A DNA stretch of 64,000 nucleotides from a plasmid: sequence record AP025670.1; one strand, written 5' to 3'. The notes under the pieces are model-generated. The model saw nothing but the letters and a program-made list of their open reading frames with translations, was not told where the DNA came from and made no database searches. Below are positions 5,994-35,326 of the stretch, one piece after another. Position 1 is the first letter of the stretch; the number at the start of each line of letters is the position of its first letter. The translations under genes were made by a program, and so were the position numbers.

Positions 5994-6336
5994 TGATTAA
6001 TGCCGCGATAAGCACCAAAGCTATTATTGCTCGTCACTTCCATTCAAATTAATTACGCCACATGTTTCAGTAAATGGGAAAGGCAAGAAAACCAACCCCC
6101 TTCTCTAAACATCACATTCTTTCAGCAAAAGGGACTTACTTAATCTGGATAAGACTGACCAAAGAATTAACGGTGCGAGAAAGTTAGCACCCGATTGCTC
6201 GCCGTTATCTTCAATTCAAAGAGAGAGAAATAAATAACAGATTGATTCCCGCCTCACTATTCGACCCCTTATTCCGCCATGAGACAATTTCATTATCTGA
6301 ACGACACGTTAATGCAATTAAACCGGAGCTAAAACC

Positions 6337-6975
6337 ATGTCCTTATCTGCAAAATATATTTACGCCACTGCCAAAGTTTCTATGTCTCACGTACTGGATC
6401 AGAACGCATTCTTCGACATCGCGTTTAACGAAAACACGGAGTACGTCTACTCGGGCATCAACAAAAGCATCATCGTGAATCTGGACGCTGCCGGGAAAGA
6501 CTGGGAAAGCATTGAGGCCAGACTGCTTAATGACGGATGGAGCACTGAGCGTTTTCCGGGGCTGCTCGGCATCTTTCAATCGCTCGTTGCCCAGCGGATC
6601 GCCTGCGTGGAGTTCCATGAACATCACCCTAAAATGCAGTGGCATAACTGGTTCACCCCGGAGACATTCATGGAAGTAAAACCCATCGGTTACGATAAGC
6701 CTCTCTTTGCCTATAAAGAACTGCCGGACGAACAGCAGAAGCAGGCCAACAAATTAATGGTAGTCGTTTCCCCTGAAACGCTAACCGACAAGGTTTTTGC
6801 GGTCGTAGGCAACGGTCGAGTCGTGAAGGTAGATGGCTTGTACGAGATGGTGCGGGAGCCGGATGAAATTAAACCCGACTATGACCGACTGATTTTTACC
6901 CCAACCAAAGAGCGGCTGGTGCTGAAAGTGAATAAAGATAAAGACACAGTTAACATCGCAATGATTATGAGCTGA
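6337..6975 (+). CDS. hypothetical protein
   Basis: 212-aa ORF. It is preceded at 6257-6300 by a plus-strand copy of the conserved promoter (CTATTCGACCCC ... GACAAT). Confidence 0.5.
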   Translation: MSLSAKYIYATAKVSMSHVLDQNAFFDIAFNENTEYVYSGINKSIIVNLDAAGKDWESIEARLLNDGWSTERFPGLLGIFQSLVAQRIACVEFHEHHPKMQWHNWFTPETFMEVKPIGYDKPLFAYKELPDEQQKQANKLMVVVSPETLTDKVFAVVGNGRVVKVDGLYEMVREPDEIKPDYDRLIFTPTKERLVLKVNKDKDTVNIAMIMS

Positions 6976-7184
6976 TAACCTGTCCCGGCTGTTTGTTGAC
7001 CGATCACACATTTTCATTTCGATACATTCCAAATGAAAACAGAGAGCAATCAGCCCAAGTTTCCGGCACCTGCACATACCGGCTCAATTCGATAAGAATG
7101 ATAACGTTGAGACAGGGACAAACTTGCTTTGTGCCTGTTGAGAGGTTGACCGAGCCGGAGAACGGCGCTGGTAAGATACCCCAC

Positions 7185-7670
7185 CTAACTGATCCGGCTG
7201 ATAGCTACGGACTGACGCAACACGGCCAGCACATCACTGACTGATATCTGCCATGCAGCTGCCTGACGTCGGATAATAAAAACGCCTAACTCAATTCGCT
7301 GATTATGACTAAGCATGTGCTGAATAGTCGTTCCCCCTTCGGAGATGATCAGCATAACGCCTTTAGCATCGTTATTGTGGACTTTCAGACCCTTGTTTTT
7401 TTTCGTACCGTGATAGCTCACATCAAGCGTTTTTTGCAGGCCAAAAAGCAACTCGCATAGCCCGGTCAGTTCATCCTTCGAGAGCTGGAGATAGATTTTG
7501 TTTGCCCAGTCTGCCGAGCTGTCGATTATTTTTGCCATCTCAACATTCACGGTCAGTTCACTGGTTTTTTCTTTTTTAGTGTACTGCACACTGAGGGCAG
7601 TACATTTGCTTGCGTCACGCTGATTATCCCCATAAAACTTAATGGCTTCTTCGAATTTATTTTCGCCCAT
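7185..7670 (-). CDS. hypothetical protein
   Basis: 161-aa ORF between the replicon and the 6337 gene. Confidence 0.45.
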   Translation of the reverse strand: MGENKFEEAIKFYGDNQRDASKCTALSVQYTKKEKTSELTVNVEMAKIIDSSADWANKIYLQLSKDELTGLCELLFGLQKTLDVSYHGTKKNKGLKVHNNDAKGVMLIISEGGTTIQHMLSHNQRIELGVFIIRRQAAAWQISVSDVLAVLRQSVAISRIS

Positions 7671-7824
7671 TTTCTTTACTCCTTTACCGTTTTGTGTCTA
7701 TTTTCCCACACAGACATGTCATACCGAACGCCTTTGCCGAGTGTTCTAAGCTAAATTCATGAATAATATGGGATTGCCTATTTTTTTTCGGGGCTATCTT
7801 TTGCTGGTGGATTGCGGATCAAAA

Positions 7825-8416
7825 GGTGTCTGCTGAGGGGAAGGTATGTCATTCATTACTCCCACGGAACAGTAGAAGAGGATTTATCCTTCATTTTTCC
7901 CCGTAAAAGGTGTCCGCTGAGGGGAAACTCGTCGGAAATACCCCGATTTTGTCCTCTTTTTTTCTGTTTGAGCATTATTTAATCGAATCTTCCCCCCAGC
8001 ACACACCGCAAATTTAGTTAGTCATTGATTTATATAGACTTTACTAAACAACAATATTTGAGGCAAGTCCGACGAGCAGGACGAAAAACCCCCCTGACAC
8101 ACACCATTCACGATCCGGGTAATGCACAGCGCACAGAAATGTTTAAAAAAGAAGCAAATTAGGAGGGGGATTTATCAGGAATTCCCGTCAAACCCCTTGG
8201 CACACACCGAACGAAAGCCAATTCCTTCCCCCTGACACACACTTTACCGGTGATAATTACGCCCCGTGATACTCACTCGGAGGGAAAACCACCAATTTTC
8301 CCCCTGACGCACACCTTGCCAGTGGCATTCCCCCCTGACACACACCTTGCCAGAGAGGCGATCAGTTCCCCCTGACACACACCTTTGCAATGACTGTTAA
8401 CCCCCCTGACACACAC
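7825..8416. repeat. incA-like iteron array downstream of repA: about 10 copies of a 19-bp iteron (core GGTGTGTGYCAGGGGG), two of them inverted
   Basis: Copies lie at about 7825, 7909, 7991, 8088, 8191, 8226, 8298, 8328, 8366 and 8398. The core matches the P1/RepFIB iteron (GTGTGCTGGAGGG). Confidence 0.8.
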
Positions 8417-8446
8417 TTTTCATTGACAGCCAAACCACAGGCACAC

Positions 8447-9313
8447 TTATTCGTTGATTACACTTAGCTTTGGACTTCGCTTGTGAATGATGAGGTAATT
8501 CTCTTGTCCTTTTTTCACCATAGAAGCGTCCAAATAGCCGATATCTATCAGCTTAGTAATCGCTTTTTTGATGATTCGATTCTGTTCTTTAACCTGACTG
8601 ATCAGAGACAACCTTTCACGTAGGCGTTCAAAAGAGATAGGAGCCGGGTTACTTGGAAGGCTTGCAAGGAAGGTATACAGGGCTTGTGCAACTTCTAGAC
8701 GTGGAAGGGCTTTTATTGCATGTAGTTGAAGAACAACACGATAATCAAAGTAGTATAACTCCCATAATCGCTCGTCTGCTTCCAGTTCCACAACGTCTGT
8801 ATCGGCATTGAAATAGGCTATCTTTATGAGGCCGGTATGATATGCAGATTGTGAATCTTTGCCTCGCTTAAATGAGATCGATTTCCCCCTGATTTTACGA
8901 AGCGATTCATCTATATGCGCTCTCAGTTTCTTGTCCAGTTTTTTACCGGGGAAACCACAATCTTTTGCGAACTCAGAAAACTTTAGTTTGATGCGGTTTG
9001 ACGAAATCCCGTACTTGCTGAACGCTTTGACTATGCCGATCCACACCTTGAAATCAGTATCCATATCAAGACGTTCACCAGTGATTTTTATGTCAGTAAA
9101 CCCCTCAAGTCTTGCAAATTCAAAGGTAGAACTTAATTCACTGACATCAATCATCGGGCTGTAGTCAGATGACCTTGATGGTTTAGGCACAAACAGGCCA
9201 AGGCGCATAAAGGCCACTGGTTGAATTGTATTCAGTTCATTAACTGTTAATGGTTTTTGTTTTTCTTCCGTGTTACCAAATAACACATCAGATATAACTA
9301 GTTGAGTTTCCAT
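8447..9313 (-). CDS. repA: replication initiator RepA (P1/RepFIB family, iteron-binding)
   Basis: METQLVISDVLFGNTEEKQKPLTVNELNTIQPVAFMRLGLFVPKPS...DIKITGERLDMDTDFKVWIG...NRIIKKAI aligns colinearly with P1 RepA (286 aa). The start is taken at METQ (ATG at 9313). The upstream CAEGKKV repeats in the longer ORF are translated iterons. Confidence 0.85.
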   Translation of the reverse strand: METQLVISDVLFGNTEEKQKPLTVNELNTIQPVAFMRLGLFVPKPSRSSDYSPMIDVSELSSTFEFARLEGFTDIKITGERLDMDTDFKVWIGIVKAFSKYGISSNRIKLKFSEFAKDCGFPGKKLDKKLRAHIDESLRKIRGKSISFKRGKDSQSAYHTGLIKIAYFNADTDVVELEADERLWELYYFDYRVVLQLHAIKALPRLEVAQALYTFLASLPSNPAPISFERLRERLSLISQVKEQNRIIKKAITKLIDIGYLDASMVKKGQENYLIIHKRSPKLSVINE

Positions 9314-9364
9314 AATAAAATAATTCCCCCCCACGTAAATGCTACGATTGTGGAAAAGTATCAC

Positions 9365-9595
9365 ATTTTCCCCGTGACGCCCACCTTTTTTCCCCTCAGC
9401 ACACACCCAAATCCCCGTAACACACACTTTCTTCCCCTCAGCACACACCTTTTTCCCCTCAGCACACACCGAAAAACGTTGTAAGCCTTGTGGCAGTAAG
9501 GCTACAGACCACGGGGATCTTTTTGGTTTTATCTGGATCTCTCTATGGATCTATTATTGGATCTACACGGTGGATATGTGGATAACTTTAAATGA
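9365..9595. other. P1-type vegetative origin (oriR): 5 incC-like iterons (9368-9470), four GATC-containing short repeats (9514-9565) and tandem DnaA boxes (TGTGGATAA at 9577-9585)
   Basis: The iteron is TCCCCTCAGCACACACC, repeated 5 times. GGATCT occurs 4 times at roughly 16-bp spacing. A consensus DnaA box lies at 9577-9585. This is the P1 oriR architecture. Confidence 0.75.
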
Positions 9596-9692
9596 TGGTA
9601 ATGTGGAGGAATATCTGACGCGCTACGCTTGTCCAACCGCTGCCGGGCAATGAAAGGTAAACCCATTCATTACCCGACAACGGTTCCCGGAA

Positions 9693-9971
9693 CTACCCCA
9701 AAGCCATCGGTTCTAACCGTAAGTATACAGTTTCATAGATAAATTTAAGAAGTCCGTTGAAGTATACGCGTTGATGCTTATCTGCTGCCCCTGTAGCCTG
9801 ATCGATTAATACCTCCAGACCGTTCTTAGGCTGATTAAGTGAGACATTATTTAGTAGATTATATTGCTCAACGAATCCATCTGTACCAATAGCCTCTATC
9901 ACTATCAATCTGAAAGCAGGATCTCTCAACAGAGCCAGTTCATGAGGTGTATAGATTTTGATGATTTTCAT
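9693..9971 (-). CDS. hypothetical protein
   Basis: The ORF is shortened to start at MKIIKIY; the longer version has no ribosome-binding site. Confidence 0.35.
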   Translation of the reverse strand: MKIIKIYTPHELALLRDPAFRLIVIEAIGTDGFVEQYNLLNNVSLNQPKNGLEVLIDQATGAADKHQRVYFNGLLKFIYETVYLRLEPMALG

Positions 9972-10217
9972 CTGAGTTTGTTCCCTTTCTGGTAAGACAG
10001 GTTTATCGAACCGCATCAGAATACATCTGATAAGCTTTGTCTTCTGGTAGTTCAGCCAGAAAAACAAGGATACCTCCGTTTTTCTTCCAAATATTTTTAT
10101 AAATATTTGATTTATCGGCTATAGAATTTAAGTCTTTAACGTTAATGTGAATAGCGAGGCAGGAGATGAGAGGCTATAGCGCGATCCTTCGGTAAACGCT
10201 CTGTTTGCCTGTCATGA

Positions 10218-10874
10218 TTATTTCAAAACGCTACTCAGGAAATGAATAGCCGGACGGTACACAGGGAATGACATAGCCCACAAGGCCGCGCACATACAGA
10301 AGAACGAGACAAAATACGATATCTTTGTCCAGTAGGTGAAAACCACCAGCGCCTGACGCCCTCTGCCCTTTACAACGAATCGCAGCAGGCTAACAGCGGT
10401 TGTGACAATGAGAAAAATAACTTCCGGCAGAGAGAACAGCGTCAGACCCAGCAACAACATGTCGCTTTTCGTATCATAAAAAAGCAATTTTGCCATTTTA
10501 GGGTCAACATCTACCAGTTTCCCATAAACAGGTTCATTAGCCACAGAAGCCTCTGTATCGCTCTGTATGAGGCGCTTTAGATCTTCCCTACCCATACCTG
10601 CTAAATCAGCTGTCATGTACTCTATGTAGCGCATATGCGCCTTATCGTTCGTTCCGGGCACGTTAACCAGTAATGCCGTGGTATCCGGCTTTTCCCTGTC
10701 CCGTATCACAGATACCCAGTTGGTATTGTAAGGGGCGACCCGAGAGGCCATGAGGTAGACACGTAAATCATCACTACGAGTGACGGCCTGACTACCTATA
10801 ACTGCGATGAACACCATGACTATCAGTGTTAGCCAGTAGCTCCAGAAAAACCATTTAGATAATCTTGATGCCAT
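10218..10874 (-). CDS. membrane protein, hypothetical
   Basis: 218 aa with 4-5 hydrophobic segments. Confidence 0.45.
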   Translation of the reverse strand: MASRLSKWFFWSYWLTLIVMVFIAVIGSQAVTRSDDLRVYLMASRVAPYNTNWVSVIRDREKPDTTALLVNVPGTNDKAHMRYIEYMTADLAGMGREDLKRLIQSDTEASVANEPVYGKLVDVDPKMAKLLFYDTKSDMLLLGLTLFSLPEVIFLIVTTAVSLLRFVVKGRGRQALVVFTYWTKISYFVSFFCMCAALWAMSFPVYRPAIHFLSSVLK

Positions 10875-10891
10875 TCCATTCCCCGACAGTT

Positions 10892-11254
10892 TTAGCGGTG
10901 TGCGTACTGGTTGTTCACCCTCTTTTTGTTGGTGCTTTTAGCGAGTTTCTTCCTGTATTTCACATGAGAATTTCGGGATATGCAGGTGATCAGCGTTGAT
11001 TGACATACAACAAATATAAACCAATTAGTGAAGAAATATTTTCTCTCTTCTTTGCACTCATAATACATTGACGTGACGCGCATAAACTCAGTGAGGATAA
11101 TATCCACCCCCCTCACCTCTTCGGTGAAGAGCTGCGCCTTTGATAATTCTTCCAGTAATCCATAGGTGCCACGGAAACCACGCTCTTTCCATCGTTCCTG
11201 AGCGTGCCGGGTAATGACGAGTGTATTGACATCGAGAAAGCTATTTTCGTGCAT
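10892..11254 (-). CDS. hypothetical protein (N-terminal ITRHAQERWKERG motif; C-terminal third is low complexity)
   Basis: 120-aa ORF. It is preceded at 11281-11325 by a conserved promoter copy of the TTAGCC sub-class. Confidence 0.35.
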   Translation of the reverse strand: MHENSFLDVNTLVITRHAQERWKERGFRGTYGLLEELSKAQLFTEEVRGVDIILTEFMRVTSMYYECKEERKYFFTNWFIFVVCQSTLITCISRNSHVKYRKKLAKSTNKKRVNNQYAHR

Positions 11255-11406
11255 GAATGAACCCTCTTAACGTGTAGTAATGATTAAAAGGCTAACACCG
11301 CACGGAAAGGGGTCGAATAGGATATCGGTTAAAAAATATACAGTTAAGAGTTAAAGAAAAACCGCCGATTAAGCGGTCTTGTTTGGGTATCTTTAGGATA
11401 GGGAGT

Positions 11407-11664
11407 CTATGCCTTTTTTCGTTCTTCAATAACGAATTCAGCGGCACATACCAGCGTTTCATGAGTGATACCATAGTTAGCATCATGTGAGCTGATCGCA
11501 TGTTTCAGGGCATCACGAGCAATTTCATCACTAATCTCTTCATTGTTAAAATCTTGTACAGCAGCTTTGACATCATCGGAATGCCAGATAATTGTACCAA
11601 TCTGTTCATCTTGATTTTTGTATTGAGAAAGATGAGCGATGATTTCTTTAACTGTACCGTACAT
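11407..11664 (-). CDS. small acidic hypothetical protein
   Basis: The start is taken at MYGTVKE, which has an AGGAG ribosome-binding site 7 nt upstream. A promoter copy lies at 11773-11785. Confidence 0.45.
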   Translation of the reverse strand: MYGTVKEIIAHLSQYKNQDEQIGTIIWHSDDVKAAVQDFNNEEISDEIARDALKHAISSHDANYGITHETLVCAAEFVIEERKKA

Positions 11665-11790
11665 AGTGATCTCCTGATTTTTCATTTAGGACAGCGGTTG
11701 CGTTTAGCTCTGGCTGTCATTGATTGTTTGTATCAGTCTTGCTGATGTAGTTATTTTCCCACGGAGGTAAGGGCGGTCGAATAGTCAAAA

Positions 11791-11830
11791 GCAAAATAGT
11801 TTTATAAAAAAAAACCGCATTGGGCGGGCT
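11791..11830 (-). terminator. rho-independent terminator
   Basis: On the minus strand, the GCCCGCCCAATGCGG hairpin is followed by a run of 9 U, just downstream of the 11856..12368 gene. Confidence 0.45.
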
Positions 11831-11855
11831 TATTTTTGGTGCTGTAGGAATGTAG

Positions 11856-12368
11856 TCAGAAGGTTTTCATGACAGACCCACAGCACGGGCATATCTTGCT
11901 TTGTCCTTCCTCAGTTAATACCCTTAAAAGTATTTTTCTCAAAATCCCCCATAGGCACAGACGAACGAGAGTAATGGAGATTGCAAAGCATCCGCCGTAC
12001 CCTACCGCCGCGTTAGTGATAACAGAGTAGTATTCCTCCCCTATTACCTCTTTTGCCAGTGGCTCCGCTTTCAGGGCGTTAACAGTAACCATGTAAAAAA
12101 AGCGCAGGTGTTCGGCAAGGTACACAGCAGTAACAAAAATGATAATTGTTACCGTGGCCTGAACGAACACGAGCCGGTTAATGCCGTGGCGAAGTTCCAT
12201 TATCAGCGCCAGCATGAGCGATCCAGAAAAGGCCAACTCAAGCGGAAAGGGCTTTTGCAATCCTGAAAGGTAGATGGTCAGCTCATGAAAGAAAAGGGCG
12301 CAGCCTCCCGCGCTTAACCCCACCAGCAGAAAACCACGCCAATATGCTTTAAATGAAAAATTCTTCAT
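11856..12368 (-). CDS. membrane protein, hypothetical
   Basis: 170 aa, multi-pass hydrophobic. Confidence 0.4.
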   Translation of the reverse strand: MKNFSFKAYWRGFLLVGLSAGGCALFFHELTIYLSGLQKPFPLELAFSGSLMLALIMELRHGINRLVFVQATVTIIIFVTAVYLAEHLRFFYMVTVNALKAEPLAKEVIGEEYYSVITNAAVGYGGCFAISITLVRLCLWGILRKILLRVLTEEGQSKICPCCGSVMKTF

Positions 12369-12378
12369 AGGCTCAGGC

Positions 12379-13029
12379 TCAATTGCTGAGAGAGTTAATC
12401 GTTACTTCGGGTTCATCGCCCAGTTCAATCATATTACCGAAGCCGTTCAGCAGGACAGGTCTGCCGTTCTGAATGGTGGCATGGGTTCGCCACCCTTCCC
12501 CGCCGTTCTCCCCCCAGCGGGCTAACCCCTCCGAGTCCATCTCTTGCTCACTGGCAAAGAAGGTTGCGCCGGGCAGCTTTTCAGCTGACAGATTAATGGT
12601 TGGATCAGCCAGCACACAGATACCGTTTTGCGTCATGAAGTACATGAGGCGTTCTGCCTTTTGCTCACAGCTGATAACAAAGCCGTTAGGCATGAGACGC
12701 GTTGTTTTGCTCGTGACGCAGATCAGATTATCCACCTTCTCACACCCTGCCATTAGCAGTATTTTCACATCAGCGGAAACATACACCTCGAGCAGCGCAG
12801 ACAGTACATCTGCTTGCTCAGGGATGTTGGCAGTAAGTGTTTTGGTTTTCCCGGCCACATCGGTATCGACAGAGGAATGGGTCATAATCTCTCTCAGTAC
12901 CACGCTGCCCGGCGATTCTGGGTCAATCCATGAATCGGACGGGTTAGGCCGTGACAGAGCGCTTATCCATGCTGAGGGAGCGTTACCGTCAAAAGTGAAG
13001 GTGAGGGTTGCCGTGCTATTAGAAGACAT
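12379..13029 (-). CDS. hypothetical protein
   Basis: 216-aa ORF, 11 bp upstream of the 11856..12368 gene. A promoter copy lies at 13098-13135. Confidence 0.45.
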   Translation of the reverse strand: MSSNSTATLTFTFDGNAPSAWISALSRPNPSDSWIDPESPGSVVLREIMTHSSVDTDVAGKTKTLTANIPEQADVLSALLEVYVSADVKILLMAGCEKVDNLICVTSKTTRLMPNGFVISCEQKAERLMYFMTQNGICVLADPTINLSAEKLPGATFFASEQEMDSEGLARWGENGGEGWRTHATIQNGRPVLLNGFGNMIELGDEPEVTINSLSN

Positions 13030-13140
13030 AGTGATTTCCTCCAGTGTGGATGCTGCGAGCTATTACGATTAGCCTCGATATGATTACAAGGTGTTATGCG
13101 ATAAAAATTATCCCATGAGCACCATAGGGGTCGAAGATTT

Positions 13141-13250
13141 TGAGAGATGAAATTCGAAAGAGATTTACAGGATTTCAAGATGAAATCTAGCCTTGTTAAT
13201 CACTAAAATCAGTAACTTAAACGAAAAGTCATTACAGGATAATTAGAGAT
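13141..13250. repeat. parS: parS-like centromere copy A: palindrome GATTTCA-AGA-TGAAATC in an AT-rich context
   Basis: It contains the P1 box-A heptamer ATTTCAC/ATTTCAA in inverted orientation, as in the P1 parS core (ATTTCAAGGTGAAAT). It lies just downstream of parB. Confidence 0.55.
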
Positions 13251-13254
13251 AAAA

Positions 13255-13282: not shown

Positions 13283-13299
13283 TTCCAAAATCAGACAGG

Positions 13300-15488: not shown

Positions 15489-15639
15489 ATGAACCCCTTT
15501 GATGTGTTGTTTTTTTAGGATTATATCAGAAATATCGACACGTTCTAGTTTTTGCAAAACTACAAACAACATCATACGCAGGAAAAACGGTCATTCAGAT
15601 GTTATACAACCATCATTAGAGGCTTATATAACATCTATT

Positions 15640-15735
15640 TAAGTGTCATTTGAATGTCATTTGAGTGTCATTAAAGGGTGATATGAGCTTTGTTTGACTG
15701 TCATTCGGATGTCAATTAGACGTCATTCAGACGCA
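15640..15735. promoter_or_regulatory. six direct repeats of about 11 bp (TGTCATTTGAA x3, then TGTCATTCGGA / TGTCAATTAGA / CGTCATTCAGA) in the parA upstream region
   Basis: Read directly from the sequence. The period of about 10.5 bp puts the sites on one face of the helix; this is a candidate par operon operator. Confidence 0.4.
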
Positions 15736-15883
15736 AAATCGAACATCCGTTAAGTGCTATTGATAAGCAAACCATGAGTAATGGTATGATTTTGTTTGCT
15801 ATTTGTTGTGATATGTTCTTTCTGTGTGCTGCTACTTCTATCCCTTGCCTTTCTGGTAAAACTGATATTTTAAGGCGTAGCAT

Positions 15884-16207: not shown

Positions 16208-16380
16208 TATTTATTTTTCCTTAACCAGAAACCATGTTGTGACAATCCACTCGGGTATTGCATTTTTTCTTGGATTGATTTTATCACTGGCAAAGAGATG
16301 CCGAAGCGAACAGGGGGATAGAGTGCTTAACAGAGATGGCTGTATGCGTTGTGATGTGACCGGGGATATGTTCAGGCACA

Positions 16381-18447: not shown

Positions 18448-18521
18448 TCCCCCCGGAGATGTCTGTTTTATCTGAGATGAATTATCTCACGGGGGTAAAG
18501 GGGGTCGAATAGAGAGGGGAG

Positions 18522-18947: not shown

Positions 18948-19044
18948 TCACCCTTCCTTCTCTGCTTGTTCTGTTACAACAGATTATCTCATCCAAAGTA
19001 AGGGGGTCGAACAGGTGAAGGGATCATAAACAGAAAGTTAAAGT

Positions 19045-21206: not shown

Positions 21207-21280
21207 GACAGGCTCCCCCCCATCGTCTGTAAAGTACAGAAAGGCTAACATGTCAACGAAGGGGGCCGAAGCGTTTCAGA

Positions 21281-21380
21281 GGAAATAACAGGTGAAATTT
21301 ACAGGATTTCACGATGAAATCCGATAGATTAATTACTTTAAATCAGTTAGTTACGATTGTTTTCATTACAGGATAAATCA
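21281..21380. repeat. parS-like centromere copy B: palindrome GGATTTCA-CGA-TGAAATCC
   Basis: This is a homolog of copy A at 13141-13250 and shares the flanking ATTTACAGGATTTCA...TTAAT.ACT.AAATCAGT...TCATTACAGGATAA. It lies about 8 kb from parAB and about 20 bp above (plus-strand) the promoter copy at 21265-21270. Confidence 0.5.
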
Positions 21381-24609: not shown

Positions 24610-24620
24610 TTAAAGGGGTA

Positions 24621-26685: not shown

Positions 26686-26874
26686 GCTTTACCCCGTACT
26701 GTGAGCTACTGTTTGATAAAACAATTATCTCACGCTTTCGGGAGTGTCGAAGTCTAAGGAAAACCATCAAGATGAGGGGGAGGGAGTGGGGTAGATACCG
26801 AGGGGGCGAACATAAAGTGATGTACGCCCTTTGAGTATTATGCGTATTCTAACAGCTTCAATAACACTTTTTCG

Positions 26875-27189: not shown

Positions 27190-27496
27190 ACAACCCCCAT
27201 AGAAACGTTATCTGAGCAATACCTTTACTTTGGCACGTATGTCTGCCAGTTCGTTTACACTGACCGTGGACGTCATGGTGGATTCGACAACCCCACCAGC
27301 AGGGAAACTATTCTATGACTATTCAGAGGAAGGCCGAAGCCCGGTAATACCTACAATAAGGTAAATATCCACGGATCTGAATACTGTAAGTTAAGGCAAA
27401 GGTGCGCTGAATAGCAAAGAGGGAGTATTCAATACCCCAGAGTCAGGGGAAGAAGCACCGCCAATTGAGGGCCAGACAGGATAAAGAGGAAGTCGG

Positions 27497-28012: not shown

Positions 28013-28291
28013 CGCAAAACACCCCTCTGACAGTATCGCCCGCCACCGTTCTCGTGGGCCGCATGGTAAAACGAGATATTTTACCTTAATGAGAACCCTA
28101 ACGACAGACATCCAGCCCTTATCACTGTTTACCAACACACTACCGATGCACGGTAAGTGCGGTATGTACGACTGACGCGCTACGCTTGTCCAACCGCTGC
28201 CGGGCAATGAAAGATGATTCCATTCATTACCCGTCAACGGTTCCCTAATTACCCCTCAATCAACCCGCGCATACCCGCAACGTAAGCTTTT

Positions 28292-29014
28292 TCAGCCTTG
28301 ATCAGTTTCATCAGTCACCTTCTGATTAAGTCCCAGAACGGCATCAGCCAGTACCCGTGGGTCTGCACCGCGCTGGTGGAGCATCATGGCAAAAACGGCA
28401 ATGTCTTCAAACGTACCCGCGTTACCTTTCAGCAAATGAGCCACCAGCTGCTCTGCCAGCAGCGTATCACTGCAATGCGTCCGGGACTCCCAGCCACCGC
28501 GCCCCTTAGCCCGTGACTTTGCCAGCTTCGCCTTACATGCCATAGCAAACGCATCAAAACAGATATCATCGCTATGCTGTACCCGGCGAGTAACACCATC
28601 AGAAGTTACTGTGTCACTTTTTGAATTCGAGATAATCGTTAGCAAACGCGAGATAACCGCAGAAGAACGGGCCGCATATTCAGAAACCGAGACATCAGTA
28701 CCGGTGTCCATGCCATCGAGCTCAAAACGCAGGTCGATTGTGTCACAGTCAATGTCACCATGATCGAGACTGCCTATCTGTTCCAAAACAAACAGGCATT
28801 GTCGGGCTTCATTCAGACACGCCAAATCAAGGGCTGGTGGAGGGGCATAAGCTGTCTTTACCAGAATGCGCTTTTCCCACTTCTCCGGGTCATGCAGGGG
28901 AGTATGAAACTCCGCCTCGCTCACCTCGACCCATTCAGCCTGTTCTTTAGAGCCATCAAGAAGGCGCACCTGAAAAACAGCACCAGCCACAGACTCAATT
29001 TTTTGTTCAGTCAT
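28292..29014 (-). CDS. hypothetical protein
   Basis: 240-aa ORF, 18 bp downstream of the 29032..29469 gene. Confidence 0.4.
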   Translation of the reverse strand: MTEQKIESVAGAVFQVRLLDGSKEQAEWVEVSEAEFHTPLHDPEKWEKRILVKTAYAPPPALDLACLNEARQCLFVLEQIGSLDHGDIDCDTIDLRFELDGMDTGTDVSVSEYAARSSAVISRLLTIISNSKSDTVTSDGVTRRVQHSDDICFDAFAMACKAKLAKSRAKGRGGWESRTHCSDTLLAEQLVAHLLKGNAGTFEDIAVFAMMLHQRGADPRVLADAVLGLNQKVTDETDQG

Positions 29015-29031
29015 ATCCCCCCCGGATAAAA

Positions 29032-29469
29032 CTATTTTTCAGTGGTGATCGCTATAACGAAAGGTACATCGGGCGTGCCTTTAGTTTCTGAGTTCTCAAT
29101 GACAAACCCAGTTTCCCACACGCCATTTGCGCCGTATTCGCGCTCACTGCTCTCGTCTTCCGGCAGCACCTTAAAAACGCCCCGCGCCAGCTCTTCCTGT
29201 TCCTCAGTAAGAGCAACGTAGCAGTTGTTCTCATGGATACATAAGCTGCCATCTGCATGACGCAGGATTACCATGTCTGATCCGAACTGACCGACCTTAC
29301 GACGCACCTGCACACAGAACCCCACCCGGTTACTTACTGGCAAGCTGTTTGGCCCGGTAATGACAAACTGCCCAAAAGCTGGATGAGATGACGTGCGTAT
29401 CATCCGGCTCCAGTCCATATTCGCGCCAATACTGGTAAGAATGTTCACAGCATCCTCGTTATCCATCAT
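29032..29469 (-). CDS. hypothetical protein
   Basis: 145-aa ORF. Confidence 0.4.
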   Translation of the reverse strand: MMDNEDAVNILTSIGANMDWSRMIRTSSHPAFGQFVITGPNSLPVSNRVGFCVQVRRKVGQFGSDMVILRHADGSLCIHENNCYVALTEEQEELARGVFKVLPEDESSEREYGANGVWETGFVIENSETKGTPDVPFVIAITTEK

Positions 29470-29702
29470 TCTGATTTCCCCCCCATTTTATATCTTAGTC
29501 ACTGCCAAAAGCATCGTAGTAGGCGACGTCTACAGGCGTACCTGCATTGTAGGTATCTTCCCAGCCGCTACTTTCACCCACGCTGTCACCGTTAAGCTCA
29601 GCAATCAGGCTCAGCTGCTCAAACCATTCCTCAAAAGAGCTCGTGGCTTTTGTCGATGCAAAATCAGCCATATACTTTCTCTCTCGTTTTGTTGGGCCAG
29701 TG

Positions 29703-30623
29703 TCAGACAGACACCAGCGTTTTCACTTCTTCTTTCCCGAAAGCCTTGCACGTCAGCTCAGCTGATTCGCCAGCAAGAGCCGGGGCTTTCCATTTGATGA
29801 ACACGGTATTACCACGCGTTAAGATCTCAGCACCTTCCAGTTTGCATTCCGGTGCCTTAGTTTCACCACTGCGGGTAGCCTTTACCGTAAAGACCCATGC
29901 CACACCAGCGGTCAGGTTTTTCGGCATGTCATAGCGAAACTCTACTGGTGGGCTATCACTGGCCTGTACATCAGAAATATCAACTCCGGCTGATTTCAGC
30001 TCGTTCAGGGCCACTTCCCGGCTTTCACCCACACTTTCCTGCTCATGGATTTGCTGCTGGATCCACGCTTTATCACTTGAGGACAGAGATGAGGCATGAC
30101 TATTACTGCTGCTCAACATCCAGTACATCATCGCGAGCGTTGTCCAGTCAGTACCGCTACGCTTGCGCTCATCAATTATGGAGCTCACTTTCTCAGGTGG
30201 GGCTTTTGTCCCGATGTACGAAGCACTTCGCCCCGACGTACCGGAAAACTTTTGAGAAGAATTATCTCGGGCTGAAAATGCGGCCGGATTTTCTTTTGTG
30301 CCAATTTTGCCTTTGTTCTCCACCAGCTTCGCGCCACTGATGCTTTTCTTCGCCACCGGACTGCTTGCGGCTGAGGGCTCATTCTTTACGCCGCTTCCCG
30401 TCGCTGTAGATTCGGCACTGGTTTTATTGCTGCTGCTGGCGTTGTTTTTGCTGCTGGAGCTGCTGCTGGGCGAGGATGAAGGTTTGCTATAGCTGGATGA
30501 CGATTTGTAGGATGAACGATACGAACTCTTGTAGCTGGATTTATAGCCAGCCTCCACTGAGAAGGATAGAGCCAATAACAAACTGAAAAGACCGATCACC
30601 ATTTTGCTGATTTTGCCGTACAT
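29703..30623 (-). CDS. secreted Ser-rich repeat protein (signal peptide; SYKSSYKSSYRSSYK repeats; long poly-Ser linker; C-terminal folded domain)
   Basis: The signal peptide is MYGKISKMVIGLFSLLLALSFSVEA, followed by low-complexity S/Y/K repeats. A promoter copy lies at 30671-30708. Confidence 0.5.
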   Translation of the reverse strand: MYGKISKMVIGLFSLLLALSFSVEAGYKSSYKSSYRSSYKSSSSYSKPSSSPSSSSSSKNNASSSNKTSAESTATGSGVKNEPSAASSPVAKKSISGAKLVENKGKIGTKENPAAFSARDNSSQKFSGTSGRSASYIGTKAPPEKVSSIIDERKRSGTDWTTLAMMYWMLSSSNSHASSLSSSDKAWIQQQIHEQESVGESREVALNELKSAGVDISDVQASDSPPVEFRYDMPKNLTAGVAWVFTVKATRSGETKAPECKLEGAEILTRGNTVFIKWKAPALAGESAELTCKAFGKEEVKTLVSV

Positions 30624-30822
30624 GATTTCTCTCTCATTTCGTGGGCGCTGGTGCCCGTTAGTCTATGCAATGATTAAAACGCTAACACCCGGTGGCACCA
30701 TGTCGAATAGCATAATAAACAATTATTTTCGCAGCGCAGGCCACAGAAACAGGGGGGGGAAGGTAACAGAAACCCGCGCTGGTGGCGGGTAGATGGATGG
30801 CTGCATAACTGCATAATACGGC

Positions 30823-31191
30823 TCAGACGGTTAAAAGTGTTTTCGTCCAGTGCTTATCCGGTTGAACATTACTGACGATAAGGCACATCCTTGAATCAGC
30901 CACCAGCGAACCATACCAGATAGTGTGGCCGCACTTTGGATGATCACGAAAACCCCACCAGTCAAAATTTGAATCAGCTACGACAAAATTCACCCATGCA
31001 GGAATTGAATAGGCTACACCTTGGATACAGACCTGCTTCTTACCTTCTGAAATGCGAAGCGGCGTTTTCTCGCCGGGGCAATCATCAGATCGACAAGCAG
31101 CCTCATCATCATAGACACGACCACAATGCTCGCAGGTAAAGGGTAAGATAGGTGCAGACTCAAGAATTTCAGTGGTCAGTGGCTGGTTCAT
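30823..31191 (-). CDS. hypothetical protein (Cys-rich)
   Basis: The start is taken at MNQPLTTE, which follows an AAGGAG ribosome-binding site. The longer ORF lacks one. Confidence 0.4.
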   Translation of the reverse strand: MNQPLTTEILESAPILPFTCEHCGRVYDDEAACRSDDCPGEKTPLRISEGKKQVCIQGVAYSIPAWVNFVVADSNFDWWGFRDHPKCGHTIWYGSLVADSRMCLIVSNVQPDKHWTKTLLTV

Positions 31192-31449
31192 CGGTGATAG
31201 CTCCTTAATCATATAGTGTATGATTAAGATAGCATGAGCCCGCAATACCTCGAAGAGTGAGCAAAGGCTATACGGGCCAAAGTTAGTACGGCATACCCAT
31301 AGGGTAAGGGTAGTTTGGTAGTAAACGACTATGAGGGTAAGGGTAAGCTTGTAAGAAATCACCCGGAGGGTAAGAGAAAGTTGGCAGGATAAAGCTATTA
31401 GGGCTCAGGGTAGCTGATGCAAGGCTGGTGGCCTCGCATCAGAAATTAA

Positions 31450-31764
31450 TTAATGCTCTTGCGCGTTCTGCTGCTGTTCGTTCGACTCACCGTACAAGAC
31501 GATCCCGGATGTATCGATTTGGTTTTCTAACTGGCGCAGATCATAATTGCTCTGTAGCCGTAACCAAAACTCAGGCGTACTCCCCAGTGCCGCAGCAATA
31601 CGAATCGAAAGAGAAGGGGTCAACGCAGTTTTCCCCGCAAGTAGACGGGATACGGTTGCTGGTGTAACACCAATATTGTGAGCAAAACGACGACCACTCA
31701 CTCCCATATCCTCTAAATCGCGGGCTATCATCTCACCCGGATGTGAAACCTTGAATTGTCTCAT
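31450..31764 (-). CDS. higA: HigA antitoxin (XRE HTH)
   Basis: 104 aa with the [39 protein letters not shown]. Its start overlaps the stop of the upstream RelE-like toxin by 1 nt. Confidence 0.75.
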
Positions 31765-32042
31765 TAGTGATAATCCTCATAATTTAAAATGTAAGCATCA
31801 CCGTTAATGAACTGAAAAGTAATGCGCCAATTCGCCCGGACAGTGATAGACCAGTAACCTTCCCGATCCCCCTTTAATGGATGTAATTTGTAAATCTGGC
31901 GGTTTAGTTCACCAATCTCTGTCGCTGTATCGATGGCCTGCAAACGGTCATTGATTCTGTCTACATCTTGCGCAGGCACACCAGAAGTAACACCCTTTTC
32001 AAAAAGCAGTTTCAATCCTTTGTGCTTGAAAGATTTTATCAT
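31764..32042 (-). CDS. higB: HigB toxin (RelE/ParE superfamily, plasmid maintenance killer)
   Basis: 92 aa ([17 protein letters not shown]...), in toxin-first order with a HigA-type antitoxin. Confidence 0.7.
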
Positions 32043-32180
32043 CGGCCATCTCTGTATTACATGGTGTGTAATACTATACCGCGATATTACACGATGTGCA
32101 ATACAGAGGTATATGGATAGTGGGGGGAGTTGATAAGAAACTTGAGGGGTCAGGGTAGATCGTAGCCTGCAAAAGAAAAA

Positions 32181-32212
32181 CCCGGCTTAGCCGGGCTCTA
32201 TGGTGATCTTAC
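32181..32212 (-). terminator. rho-independent terminator
   Basis: On the minus strand, an AGCCCGGCTAAGCCGGG hairpin plus TTTTTCTTTT. Confidence 0.5.
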
Positions 32213-32542
32213 TCAGCGGCACTTTCCACCTAAAATCTCAGTCCAAGATGCTCGACATTGCTGCCCGACATTACTGCCCGCAGTCATAATTGCTTCTTCC
32301 ACCTCTTGAGGGCAAAGATATTTCTCACCTTCTTCACAGGATGTCTGGTAGGTTCCCGGCAGGTAGAACGTCACTTCAACACCTTGCTTAATCTCTTGCC
32401 GAGCTCTCTCCACCAGCTCATTCACGCTATCACGGTCAAAACCCGGCATAGATGGCAACGGAACGTCGGAAGGTACTGCGTCAATCCATTCCAGTGCGTC
32501 GATCAAAGCGGCCAGTGTTTCCTGATGAGTGGTCATGTTCAT
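32213..32542 (-). CDS. hypothetical protein
   Basis: 109-aa ORF. Confidence 0.4.
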   Translation of the reverse strand: MNMTTHQETLAALIDALEWIDAVPSDVPLPSMPGFDRDSVNELVERARQEIKQGVEVTFYLPGTYQTSCEEGEKYLCPQEVEEAIMTAGSNVGQQCRASWTEILGGKCR

Positions 32543-32979
32543 GCTCCTGTTAAGTTCGGCTAAAACACCTTATTCATACACTATATGAATAAGGTATCAT
32601 GAACAAGAACGGTCACCAAGAGCCCGCCGAAACGAAAAACTGTTTTACACTGGTGTCCTGCCAGCCCATCAAGATCCCTTACACTGAATCCCTTTTCAGT
32701 CCTGTACCTTGATCCTGAATGCGAAACTGCATAGGGGCATCAGCCGAAGCCGTTACCGGTACTACCGGTTCCTCAGAAAAGAAAAACCCGCGCAAGGCGG
32801 GTATGATATAGATAGGCAACCGTGCTGCTGGTGGCTGGGGAGGGCGCAGTAAACCCCAGATCACTACACAAAAAAACCAGCACTAAGGCCAGTAACTCGG
32901 AACATCTTTTCATTTATTTTTTTCGTTGAAGCTTTGCCACATGATAATCAACTTTCATCACAAGAGTACGGAAATGAAA

Positions 32980-33222
32980 TTACTCCCCGGAACGAGGCAA
33001 AAACCTAACGTTCTCACCTTCTTCTGACAGTAGCACGCTCACTACACCGCTTTCATCAAGCAGTAACGTTGCCGTGTCTTCTAAGCCATCATCTCTACGC
33101 ACCAGCACATTGACTCGGCCAAGCTCAGGCAACAGAACAATGATGCGAGAAAGACTACTAACCAGCGTCAGGTTCCTCGCAGCAAGAGCTTCACGAACTT
33201 TATCTATAACGCTTTGCGTCAC
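32980..33222 (-). CDS. hypothetical small protein
   Basis: 80-aa ORF. Confidence 0.3.
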   Translation of the reverse strand: MTQSVIDKVREALAARNLTLVSSLSRIIVLLPELGRVNVLVRRDDGLEDTATLLLDESGVVSVLLSEEGENVRFLPRSGE

Positions 33223-34262
33223 CAGCTGATCTCCATTGCTTCGCGTCGAAACATCTCGACGTGAAAATTATGGCACAGTTTTCAGGCGCTGAATATTTGA
33301 ATGAAAATGACGGTTTTTTGATGAGAACGTGGATTGCGATTTTATGACCGAATTTAGGACGAAAAAAAAGGCCGATTAACGGCCTAAAACATTTAATCAC
33401 ATTGGGCTCGTTTTTTTAGAGACTCTCACTCTAAAAAACAGAACACGTACTATCAGTGAATTTGCAGCATCAGAAAGCAGGGTTATTACCACTTCGTAAA
33501 TTGTGCCGTCTCTTACTTCCCCCTCGACAGCAATCAATCCAAAAACAACCCACCTAACATTTTACAGCAAACATCGTAATAACCGAAAATACCACTACAA
33601 AAAGTACCACTATATCGAGCTTTTTTTATCGGACTGCCCTCCGGCAGTTTACTACGCCACACCACTTAACAGCGCTTGTAGTTAATTCAACTACACGGGA
33701 CGTAGATTATCATGAAGTGACTAAATGGTGAAATTTATTAATGAGTTTTATTGTAATGTGCTATCGAATGGGGGTTGCAACAGCGCGTGTAACAATATAA
33801 TTAAACTCAGGCCATCCGGCCAGTAATGGCTGTGTCATACTTTCGTTTAAGCTTTCGTGTCTTATTATCAAAAAAAACGGGCCAATTGTCCGGGAACAAC
33901 CACCCAGTGTCATAAACAAAAGTGTAAAGGGAAAGGCGGGGCATTTTCACAGCATACGCTCATGAAACCTGACACACTCGGCAACCTTACCATCCAGATC
34001 AGGATTCGCTACCGCCATGCGCTCACGAACTGAACGCGGGAAATGCCGTAGTACACTTACGCGGGTCGCTCCTATACCCCAAAACCATCCCTAACATGTC
34101 GCCTTCATTAATCTGGTTAAGTTATCAACACCATTCTTTATGACTGATAAACCTAACCGAGTAACCAAAGCTCCCAGTCGGCTAACTATCCCAACTGCAA
34201 TCAACTCATCATTAGAGAAAAAAAAACCGGCATAAGCCGGTCTTGGAATATTTGATTAACCA

Positions 34263-34715
34263 TTATTTCAGATGAGGCGAGCTGCCAACATCTTCGGGGT
34301 TATACATAGAGTCCTCTTCTGCCTTATCTGCTGGTGGCTCTTCGATACCCAATCGACCGATCACAATCGAACGGCCAAGACTAAAAGACACGATGCCAGT
34401 AAGAACGACACTCATTACCCCAGAGAACGAAATTGGCTTTTCAAAGACATACGTTTGAGTATCACACATGATCAGAATGAATAGGGAGTATACGAGAAAT
34501 CCCTTTGGTGTCCTGATGACGCCCTGAGCACTCACCAATGGATACCGCATACCCAGAACGGTCATAACCACCAGCGCGATAAGGACAAACGTAATTGCAA
34601 AGCTCCCAGACTCAAGCGCCATGAACGAGGTCACGACCAAAAACAGAAACGAGATATTGAACCAGTACAGCGCCCCCGGTGCCTTGATTGGCAACCCAAA
34701 CATTCCATCATTCAT
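34263..34715 (-). CDS. membrane protein
   Basis: 150 aa with 4 transmembrane segments. A terminator hairpin lies at 34222-34250. Confidence 0.4.
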   Translation of the reverse strand: MNDGMFGLPIKAPGALYWFNISFLFLVVTSFMALESGSFAITFVLIALVVMTVLGMRYPLVSAQGVIRTPKGFLVYSLFILIMCDTQTYVFEKPISFSGVMSVVLTGIVSFSLGRSIVIGRLGIEEPPADKAEEDSMYNPEDVGSSPHLK

Positions 34716-35041
34716 AGTACCCCCCCGGTACGACCTGATAGTAAATAAACACGATTTTCTACGAGTAACATCTTTACACCCACAACAGTAAAAAAGTCTG
34801 GATTCAGCACGAATACCGAATCACCGATAGCCCCACCAGCTGCCGCTAAGACTCGCCCATGCAGTATATCAAGATCACGTCGTTCCAGCCCTGAAACAAT
34901 GAACACCCCTGCATAGTTTTCACCAAACCACTTCAGGCAAAACCAACCAAGCAGAGCCCCCCTCAACAACCGAAGAACTCTAACTGCAAAAACCATTATG
35001 AAAAGCGAGGCGATAAGAGAGGGGATTAAGTAGGCTGGCAT
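34712..35041 (-). CDS. membrane protein
   Basis: 109 aa. It overlaps the downstream gene by 4 bp. Confidence 0.4.
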   Translation of the reverse strand: MPAYLIPSLIASLFIMVFAVRVLRLLRGALLGWFCLKWFGENYAGVFIVSGLERRDLDILHGRVLAAAGGAIGDSVFVLNPDFFTVVGVKMLLVENRVYLLSGRTGGVL

Positions 35042-35232
35042 GGCACCGCCTCTTTTTTGACAAGCGTCAGTCGGAAATTGAAAATAGGAACCTTGTTCTT
35101 GATGCTATATGTGATTTTAACATTGCGACCGTACCTGTTTCTCAGTTGCTGAGCATGAAGAAAAGCATTGCCCGGCTCATAGTTCCGCATCACTACATCA
35201 ATTAATCTCAAACCATCTTTCTGCTTCAACAT
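35026..35232 (-). CDS. small hypothetical protein
   Basis: 68 aa. A promoter copy lies at 35262-35294. Confidence 0.3.
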   Translation of the reverse strand: MLKQKDGLRLIDVVMRNYEPGNAFLHAQQLRNRYGRNVKITYSIKNKVPIFNFRLTLVKKEAVPCQPT

Positions 35233-35326
35233 AACCCCCCCGGCTGCTCTTGATAATAAGATAAATTATCCCACGCACTCCAAGGGGGTCGAATAGCTTG
35301 ACGCTTAATTATTACTCACATGCACA

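Follow-up and report, generated by a model that had tools for sequence, protein, structure and literature searches.

A promoter family with a conserved -35 box heads backbone operons of IncT plasmids

A promoter family on an Rts1-derived segment

In a 64-kb stretch of plasmid DNA (sequence record AP025670.1; here called the window), we found multiple copies of a conserved, lineage-specific promoter family that has about 30 members per plasmid and heads the non-transfer backbone operons of IncT plasmids. Each copy combines a box around the word TTCGRC, at the position of a -35 element, with a -10 element 16 to 17 bp downstream. The pattern TTCGRC-N13/14-TGNNANNNT had 12 exact matches in the window, compared to 0.67 ± 0.87 expected from shuffled sequences, and none of 100 shuffled windows reached 12 matches (maximum, 4). 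All 12 matches were located between positions 6260 and 35293 (11 on the minus strand and 1, at 6260, on the plus strand). An earlier reading of the window, made without database searches (the sequence-only reading), had proposed a promoter family at the head of small operons. Its existence is borne out by the match count together with the orientation, spacing, extended -10 elements, and A/T tracts of the copies.

To list individual sites, we took every TTCGRC with its best -10 element and inspected the remaining intergenic gaps. The relaxed pattern added sites at 27338 (TAGAAT, no TG), 26201 (TGGTTTACT), and 24023 (TGTTTTAAT) and led to a list of 17 sites, which includes two weak variants (24564, TTCGACC..TGTTAACT; 31254, TTCGAGG..TGCTATCTT). 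All 17 are intergenic and on the same strand as the next gene. The spacer is 17 bp long at 14 sites and 16 bp at 3 sites, as previously described, and the start codon lies 61 to 149 nt downstream of the -35 box, farther than the 40 to 90 bp first suggested. Thirteen of the earlier coordinates were accurate to within 1 nt; the one given as 26736 was off by 10 (the GTCGAA is at 26746-26751), and a strong site at 16305 had been missed. Minus-strand genes are preceded by about 26 gaps of 74 bp or more, of which 16 carry a family site. The gaps before repA (iterons and a DnaA box), parA (AATGAC repeats), and higBA have no box and present other promoter contexts. Since repA, parAB, and higBA lack the box, the array does not form one single regulon, contrary to the initial proposal.

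Window positions 5994 to 36225 are 99.99 to 100% identical to the IncT plasmid Rts1 (NC_003905; Rts1 positions 190581 to 217182 plus 1 to 3630), and the promoter finding therefore concerns a fragment of Rts1. The Rts1-derived part spans about 30 kb (47% of the window) and is bounded by copies of IS26 at 5171-5994 and 36225-37046; a further IS26 is found at 1152-1972. The window has 17 sites because it carries this IS26-bounded fragment, which contains repA with its iterons, parAB, higBA, psiA, and about 40 small genes. Outside this fragment, the sequence corresponds to other DNA of the mosaic Providencia plasmid p.BML2526. The replicon type is IncT, with MOBH/MPF_F relatives, and not IncFIB as the sequence-only reading had it. 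The same backbone is present in several IncT resistance plasmids (Rts1, pT-OXA-181, and p.BML2526-type mosaics).

Rts1 as a whole has about 32 gene-proximal copies. Scanning Rts1 with a two-block position weight matrix (PWM) built from the window sites identified further copies on the plus strand (70882, 71422, 73178, 74016, 86189, 88858, 92760, 96448, 96952, and 100538) and on the minus strand (111972, 127875, and 188314). All 17 occurrences of CTATTCGRC in Rts1 have a -10 element at the fixed distance of 16 to 17 bp and a downstream gene. About half of the Rts1 copies are 70 to 130 kb away, in another backbone module, and the copy at 188314 is upstream of the parM-orf249-slt-setD-setC operon. 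In Rts1 conjugation, Orf249 is a negative regulator, and the SetC/SetD homologs are positive regulators that are required for the process (PMC10838148). The tra operons of Rts1 and of a related Klebsiella plasmid have no box and share a separate upstream motif (CAAAACGnCCnnTTTTTC-like). With copies plasmid-wide and tra operons without the box, the family marks the non-transfer backbone and not, as had been expected, the leading region. The array does begin beside mobI/oriT in Rts1 (Rts1 annotation; PMC10838148). In the window, the IS26 at 36225 intervenes and also removes the adjacent mobI/oriT side, so that the array of the mosaic plasmid no longer adjoins the IncT oriT. The same IS26 truncates an AAA-like open reading frame (ORF), of which the intact Rts1 gene (302 amino acids [aa] annotated) ends at Rts1 position 191479.

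The transfer-operon motif (e.g., GGGCAAAACGTCCTGTTTTTTC and CCCCAAAACGTCCCCTTTTTC), located outside the window, is found in Rts1 before orf136642, mobH/orf200, orf146678, dsbC (152192), and orf174428. It is conserved at the same places in the Klebsiella plasmid (NZ_AP023339) and is probably where the SetC/SetD homologs bind. These plasmids have two promoter classes, with the box at backbone operons and the SetCD-like motif at transfer operons. Within the Rts1 backbone, the module at 17 to 50 kb, which is paralogous to the one at 70 to 104 kb, had neither the box nor any other enriched -35 word. The two modules share SPFH, dam, rdgC, DUF1064, DUF2726, and DUF4942, with the box only in the 70- to 104-kb copy. 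This suggests that they derive from lineages with different transcription control.

Promoter anatomy and conservation between plasmids

An alignment anchored on the TTCG core covered 57 gene-proximal sites of the two plasmids, Rts1 and the Klebsiella relative. The layout starts with an A/T tract at about -55 to -48, followed by the box (g)CTA-TTCGRC-Ccc at -39 to -27, an unconserved spacer of 16 to 17 bp, and TGn with GATAAT, TAAAAT, or TAGCnT. The region 20 to 13 nt before TTCG was 67 to 89% A+T, and an upstream run of at least five A's or T's was present in 29 of the 57 sites (versus 14% of random windows); at several sites this run is the tail of a preceding terminator (terminator family D4). 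C, T, and A at box positions -3 to -1 were found in 37, 38, and 32 sites and C at positions +6 to +8 in 43, 33, and 31 sites, with no conservation across the roughly 10 nt after the box. Conservation beyond the -35 hexamer, noticed previously, is thus real but only moderate. In the -10 region, the T and G of the extension were present in 42 and 43 sites, A at hexamer position 2 in 49, and T at position 6 in 51. An exact TGNNANNNT element occurs in 12 of the 17 window sites, and a TAGCnT subfamily of -10 elements is followed by TTAATCAT. Apart from the invariant non-consensus word at the -35 position, the sites are built like sigma-70 extended -10 promoters that have an upstream A/T tract. Judged by this layout, the sites are very probably functional sigma-70 extended -10 promoters.

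In the TAGC subfamily, TG-T-TAGC(C/G)T replaces GATAAT (11289-11300, 21242-21250, 30679-30690, and 31226-31240). The words TTTTAATCAT or TTAATCATAC follow the -10 element in three of these four window sites and in the Klebsiella counterparts; the fourth (21270) has TTCTGTACT. The word might act as an additional control element that is specific to this subfamily and overlaps the start site.

The copies are not near-identical, as had been thought. Sharing is limited to two blocks, about 13 nt around the -35 and about 9 nt at the -10, and a repeat search recovered the family only as 24- to 46-nt matches of 60 to 79% identity. Some copies have short segments of up to 46 nt in common (e.g., 11279-11324 and 30669-30714), but since the spacers and flanks are unrelated, recent copying fails to explain most sites. 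The box also emerged from a test that did not use it as an anchor. Among 5-mers located 19 to 21 nt before every TGNNANNNT in Rts1, TTCGA and TCGAC were at the top (28 and 26 occurrences, respectively, versus about 4 expected), and in the Klebsiella relative TTCGG ranked first (33 versus 5 expected). The eight most enriched 5-mers listed for the -35 distance did not include TTGAC.

The region has matches of about 67% nucleotide identity in about 475 PLSDB records of large conjugative plasmids, most of them from Klebsiella. We focused on pMH15-269M_2 (NZ_AP023339), the Klebsiella plasmid used above, whose entire backbone is syntenic with that of Rts1 (median protein identity, 61%). The plasmid has 27 pattern matches, compared to about 1 expected from shuffles. 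Between it and Rts1, 22 orthologous promoter pairs were located upstream of orthologous genes. In gapless register, identity in these pairs was 0.59 to 0.77 at CTA, 0.91 at C5, and 0.73 to 0.91 at the TG, A, and T of the -10 element; it ranged from 0.59 to 1.0 in the boxes overall and from 0.2 to 0.45 in spacers and flanks. The motif is therefore conserved before orthologous genes in a relative in which the surrounding intergenic DNA is randomized, which removes one of the objections anticipated in the sequence-only reading. Alignments of four plasmids at two promoters showed the same conserved islands: at P18509, conservation is confined to the T-tract, box, -10 element, and Shine-Dalgarno sequence, and at P26201 the promoter and 5' untranslated region are almost invariant. 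A comparison of the window with pT-OXA-181 (98% identity) showed 1 difference in 374 box positions and 24 in 1,492 other promoter-region positions (one-sided P = 0.026).

The two lineages differ at position 5 of the box, where Rts1 has A at 22 sites and G at 9 and the Klebsiella plasmid has A at 4 and G at 21 (Fisher P = 5e-5). In 13 of the 22 orthologous pairs, the position is A in Rts1 and G in the relative. The G+C contents of the two plasmids are nearly equal (45.7% and 44.6%, respectively). In the more distant MOBH plasmids of Moellerella and Citrobacter, the word found at this spacing is TTCGTC or TTCGTT; five copies fell within 41 kb, each of them before a gene, and one more was in backbone DNA. 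The box was not enriched in the one IncC locus tested (L013) or in pPROV236-1. Among species-representative genomes, a protein scan found no relative, and a DNA-motif scan gave 75 single matches in unrelated taxa, consistent with chance.

A candidate plasmid-encoded reader of the box

No part of these promoters is better conserved than the -35 word with its flanks, even though an extended -10 element should make the -35 dispensable, which suggests that something beyond sigma-70 reads the box. As host RNA polymerase should be able to start from the extended -10 alone, the invariant non-consensus box is most likely the operator of a plasmid-encoded factor. From the sequences compared here, we put the existence of a plasmid-encoded reader at slightly better than even odds; that such a reader acts as a repressor is predicted by analogy, with odds slightly below even. 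In the joint reading, to which we assign a probability of roughly 45%, CTATTCGRCC would be the operator of an unrecognized plasmid protein (a repressor or a replacement of sigma-70 region 4) from outside the annotated families. The protein would jointly control some 30 promoters, both in IncT plasmids and in the large family of related plasmids from Klebsiella, Citrobacter, Escherichia, and Serratia. Its binding specificity would have evolved in step with position 5 of the box (A, G, or T in three lineages), and it would gate parM-orf249-setDC.

In such a circuit, host RNA polymerase would start via the extended -10 alone and the plasmid-encoded factor would occupy the -35 box of about 30 promoters, in the simplest version as a global repressor. 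Expression of the operons would stay low in established cells, with a burst when the plasmid enters a repressor-free cell. The box before parM-orf249-slt-setD-setC would tie the conjugation master operon into the circuit. If this is true, establishment functions are linked to the conjugation decision through parM-orf249-setDC.

The shift at position 5 bears on the nature of the reader. Region 4 of sigma-70 is highly conserved among Enterobacterales. In sigma-70 terms, TCGACC matches the consensus at four of six positions (16-bp register), and the Klebsiella-preferred TCGGCC matches at three. A concerted shift at many sites is the outcome expected from co-evolution with a plasmid-encoded reader and thus favors a factor acting in trans. 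The shared regulator postulated in the sequence-only reading gains indirect support from this shift, although we found no sigma factor, activator, or repressor to fill the role.

Several observations weigh against a plasmid-encoded reader. The sites were gathered with a TTCG anchor, and the invariance of those four bases is partly by construction. Both A and G are found at position 5 in both lineages, which makes the shift a bias with exceptions. Mosaic plasmids that lack the remainder of Rts1 still maintain the 30-kb fragment, and any regulator must therefore be inside the fragment or be dispensable. A Pfam search of 42 proteins (37 encoded in the window and 5 from Rts1 loci outside it) gave no KorA/TrfB-type match, with remote homologs still possible, and PHROGs returned solely families of unknown function for 10 proteins. 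In a PDB sequence search with five proteins, none matched a DNA-binding regulator: four had no match, and a 355-aa protein matched the ParB family. No KorA/ArdK-type gene is present in the RefSeq annotation of Rts1. The box is asymmetric, and no 6+6 palindrome (gap of 0 to 4) occurs at least three times in Rts1 apart from insertion sequence copies. A second arm at offset -8 with at least four of six matches to TTCGRC is present in 16 of the 57 sites, which is weak, with other offsets at background. Finally, our literature search found no 5' end data for Rts1-type plasmids.

As for the proteins themselves, the recognizable DNA-binding ones are the ParB helix-turn-helix (ParB-HTH) protein and, in Rts1 outside the window, the FlhC-like SetC homolog. 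The 355-aa ParB-HTH protein has a Pfam ParB-HTH match and is unusually conserved (81% identity, compared to the median of 61%). ParB-type HTH proteins bind palindromes. In the Klebsiella plasmid, the sole recurrent palindrome is the parS-like ATTTCG-N3-CGAAAT, present three times, and a perfect second arm is found at one site (TTCGGCTATTCGGCC). Among 30 consecutive array proteins, only one had a Pfam match above the curated cutoff. The "psiB" and "peptidase" genes of the sequence-only reading were not confirmed by Pfam, leaving PsiA (RefSeq annotation) and the ParB-HTH protein as the recognizable products. For the 68-aa basic protein behind P35293, a homolog search gave just two near-identical proteins. 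Orf249 is encoded outside the window, behind one of the box promoters, and is thus a possible candidate reader, as a lead and not a result.

It is also conceivable, although less likely, that there is no dedicated regulator. The promoters would then be constitutive sigma-70 extended -10 promoters, and the box would be the suboptimal -35 of the lineage with its flanks, kept for a set strength or spread by segment copying. With a 16-bp spacer, TCGACC agrees with TTGACA at its T, G, A, and C, a generic promoter scan calls four of the sites in this register, and an extended -10 with an A/T tract suffices for activity. The lack of a regulator in the Pfam, PHROGs, and PDB searches and the segments of up to 46 nt common to some copies also fit. 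Harder to reconcile with constitutive promoters is that about 57 of them, on two plasmids differing at about one-third of nucleotides, without exception have the non-consensus C as the second base of the -35, with TTGAC missing from the eight most enriched 5-mers listed. In addition, the orthologous Klebsiella sites prefer TCGGCC, a worse sigma-70 match, distant relatives have TCGTCA, and the CTA before and CC after the hexamer are conserved beyond the needs of a -35. Less probable still is a plasmid-encoded activator or sigma region 4 replacement without which the promoters would be silent, on the model of a monomeric class II activator or of the MotA box in T4 middle promoters. The asymmetry of the box, its location exactly at the position of sigma-70 region 4, its pairing with a good sigma-70 -10, and the one position that varies by lineage would all suit such a protein. 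Yet a TG-extended -10 with five of six hexamer matches usually needs no -35 contact, no sigma, AraC-type, or MotA/AsiA-like protein was annotated or detected, and the fragment persists in mosaic plasmids without most of Rts1.

Two further explanations are very improbable. The promoters could belong to the SetCD (FlhDC-like) conjugation regulon of Rts1, given that the SetC/SetD homologs are required for conjugation (PMC10838148) and that one box is upstream of the operon of setDC itself. However, AcaCD/SetCD boxes are directly upstream of poor -35/-10 elements and differ in sequence (GCCCTAAAAGGGC for AcaCD; PMC4605294 and PMC4344509), and the tra operons carry the CAAAACGnCCnnTTTTTC-like motif in place of the box. 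A role at the DNA level is comparably improbable, such as a target of a Tus-like protein (which are monomers with asymmetric sites) or a replication/segregation signal before genes. The box is asymmetric and strand biased, Rts1 and its relatives encode Tus-like proteins, and these plasmids have no E. coli-type Ter cores above chance. A signal of this kind does not account for the -10 element at a fixed distance and the downstream gene that accompany all 17 CTATTCGRC sites of Rts1. Tus-like genes are on Rts1 and relatives, and homologs of about 44% identity are common on IncC plasmids; the lack of box enrichment in the IncC locus tested (L013) also made a Tus-like protein unlikely as the reader of the box. 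The word TGTTGTAAC, an E. coli Ter core, is found at 18967-18976, just downstream of the -10 of P19011. As GTTGTAAY occurs at chance frequency in Rts1 and its relative, this is probably a coincidence.

Reiterated cis-elements in plasmid backbone promoters are known in general, from the IncP-1 kor regulon and from ArdK in IncN and IncW plasmids. In the IncP-1 plasmids RK2/RP4, KorA (OA), KorB (OB), and KorC operators are present in backbone promoters. These operators are palindromes, located at the -10 or just upstream of the -35. The IncT family resembles this system in having cis-elements repeated plasmid-wide in strong sigma-70 promoters, which here would co-regulate backbone operons, and a ParB/KorB-like protein (355 aa) is encoded here, but neither Rts1 nor the Klebsiella relative has a recurrent palindromic operator of the kor kind. 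The position of the KorA operator is as cited in PMC9723621. The closest worked example is ArdK of IncW R388 and IncN pKM101, a KorA-family repressor that binds non-palindromic repeats at five establishment promoters, where they overlap the -35 (PMC9723621). The strong promoters of R388, which are under negative feedback, show a posttransfer overshoot (PMC3937220). The likeness lies in a short, reiterated, non-palindromic element overlapping the -35 of several strong plasmid promoters, with small genes of maintenance, establishment, or unknown function downstream. Negative feedback with a posttransfer burst is predicted here by analogy. The ArdK operators are clear direct repeats of TTGACA-like arms at 5 promoters with a known regulator gene, whereas we have about 30 promoters, an asymmetric CTATTCGRCC with a weak second arm, and no detected KorA/ArdK homolog.

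Other systems differ more in their layout. The present family shares with extended -10 promoters the TG one base before a hexamer with A2 and T6, the 16- to 17-bp spacing, and the upstream A/T tract; the invariant non-consensus -35 motif with 3 nt conserved on either side is unexpected if -35 recognition is not needed. The CUP (conserved upstream) repeats of the leading region of the IncN plasmid pKM101, attributed to Delver and Belogurov (1997), are reportedly long homologous repeats. Like these, our sites are repeated promoter-bearing elements before many small genes in a co-oriented array. Unlike CUP repeats, they consist of two short boxes only (24 to 46 nt, 60 to 79%), have flanks at background, and are not confined to the vicinity of oriT. 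The SetCD/AcaCD promoters of SXT/R391 and IncC elements come from the same MOBH/FlhDC-type superfamily and have a reiterated box next to the -35 (PMC4344509 and PMC4605294), but there the sequence and position of the box differ and the core promoters are poor, whereas the IncT sites have a strong -10 and the box at the -35. Frpo/ssi elements are leading-region single-stranded DNA (ssDNA) promoters with long hairpins that mimic duplex -35/-10 elements (PMC11541004), and they are proposed to provide early expression of genes in arrays with psi-type genes. Folding five 141-nt promoter regions as ssDNA gave z scores of 0.15, -1.1, -2.8, -2.3, and -0.8, with no shared structure. In the literature searched, we found no description of the motif in a plasmid context; a mention in the Rts1 genome paper (Murata 2002), which was outside that search, is possible.

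The genes behind the family promoters are nearly all of unknown function. One cis-element that marks about 30 transcription units provides a ready operon map and a handle for finding the regulator, and the family is a clean, testable regulon prediction for a clinically widespread plasmid backbone with mostly uncharacterized genes. The box family also allows a direct test of the R388-type logic of repression followed by a burst in IncT plasmids.

Individual promoters and neighboring elements

Apart from P6260, the 17 window sites are on the minus strand, and spacers measure 17 nt except where noted. Scores are those of the PWM, and Kp denotes Klebsiella plasmid coordinates. The plus-strand site P6260 (6256-6288; ACTA-TTCGAC-C, TGAGACAAT) precedes a 212-aa ORF at 6337-6975, scores 33.7, and has a counterpart at Kp 26009. 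P35293 (35265-35297; GCTA-TTCGAC-CCCC, TGGGATAAT) has the top score of 37.3, heads a 68/109/150-aa operon at 35232-34263, and is orthologous to Kp 156210. Next to it in score, at 37.0, is P18509 (18481-18513; TCTA-TTCGAC-CCCC, TGAGATAAT), which heads the operon at 18447-16939 for a 92-aa protein, a 171-aa protein, and PsiA. The -10 word of P18509 recurs at P19011 (18983-19015; TTCGACC, TGAGATAAT; score, 32.3; ortholog at Kp 11779), upstream of a 141-aa ORF (18947-18522), and at P26751 (26724-26755; TTCGAC-A, 16-nt spacer, TGAGATAAT; score, 29.3), upstream of a 96-aa ORF (26685-26395). P19771 (19743-19775; TTCGACC, TGCCATAAT) precedes a 219-aa ORF at 19704-19045 and has its ortholog at Kp 10804.

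Two sites score 31.2. One is P11781 (11753-11785; ACTA-TTCGAC-C, TGGGAAAAT; ortholog at Kp 20164), which has a terminator (family D4) just upstream and a 92-aa ORF downstream (11685-11407). The other is P11317 (11289-11321; CCTA-TTCGAC-C, TGTTAGCCT, TAGC subfamily; ortholog at Kp 20636), at the head of a 120/218-aa operon. P30707 (30679-30711; GCTA-TTCGAC-A, TGTTAGCGT), also of the TAGC subfamily, serves a 306-aa ORF and the three next genes and is orthologous to Kp 165283. P21270 (21242-21274; TTCGGCC, TGTTAGCCT) heads a 123/97/121-aa operon (ortholog at Kp 8770), and P13135 (13107-13139; TTCGACC, TGGGATAAT) heads a 216/170-aa operon (ortholog at Kp 18287, a variant).

The gene for the 355-aa ParB-HTH (KorB-like) protein (26119-25052) is behind P26201 (26173-26205; GCTA-TTCGAC-C, TGGTTTACT; score, 27.8). 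P24023 (23995-24027; TTCGGCC, TGTTTTAAT; score, 25.4) precedes a 172-aa ORF (23961-23443) and downstream genes. The strong site absent from the sequence-only reading, P16305 (16278-16309; TTCGGC-A, 16-nt spacer, TGATAAAAT; score, 25.1), is upstream of a 107-aa ORF (16207-15884). P27338 (27310-27342; TTCGGCC, TAGAAT without TG; score, 22.4) is 149 nt before a 104-aa ORF (27189-26875), and its ortholog at Kp 173150 is a TTCGGGG variant. Membership is less certain for the two weak variants, P31254 (31226-31258; TTCGAGG, TGCTATCTT and then TAATCATAC), before a 129-aa ORF (31212-30823) and with a similar variant at Kp 164381, and P24564 (24537-24568; TTCGACC, 16-nt spacer, (TG)TTAACT), before a 152-aa ORF (24513-24055).

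Many array genes have a run of five to seven G's (CCGGGGGGG and GGGGGGGAA) as the ribosome-binding region in place of AGGAGG (35233-35245, 34716-34730, 29470-29485, 29015-29030, 18448-18460, and other sites). When P35293 is folded as a single strand, pairing is possible between this G-run and the C-run of the -35 box (z = -2.8), but it was inconsistent across sites.

A 28-nt repeat, 93% identical between its copies at 13160-13187 and 21294-21321, contains inverted ATTTCA heptamers (GATTTCATCnTGAAATC) and lies directly upstream of P13135 and P21270, with one copy just downstream of parB. ATTTCG-N3-CGAAAT is found at matching places in the Klebsiella relative (three times). The repeat resembles the P1-type parS box A; it may be a centromere doubling as a silencer of the adjacent promoters. 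Upstream of parA (15560-15760), about eight spaced AATGAC/AATTGAC words (TCTGAATGACGTCTAATTGACATCCGAATGACAG...AAATGACACTCAAATGACATTCAAATGACAC) are present without a family box, and this array is probably a ParA/ParB autoregulatory operator.

The IncT origin is intact in the fragment, with two clusters of RepA iterons of about 21 nt (TTCCCCTCAGCACACACC type) flanking repA (7990-8417 and 9362-9475). The region upstream of repA (9500-9600) has a DnaA box (TTATCCACA) and a GATC cluster, as expected for Rts1. A 74-nt element with a hairpin of at least 20 bp occurs in two copies of 93% identity, one abutting the repA origin region (9615-9688) and the other in the 279-nt gap before a 171-aa ORF (28172-28245); neither gap has a family promoter. 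The fold of the minus strand (-21.6 kcal/mol, z = -4.8) is more stable than that of the plus strand (-15.9), and the element may serve as a single-strand initiation site or a signal on ssDNA. Outside the IncT segment of the window, an Rfam search identified an ordinary sok antitoxin RNA (74.8 bits) on the minus strand at 48486-48637, beside an annotated Hok/Gef gene.

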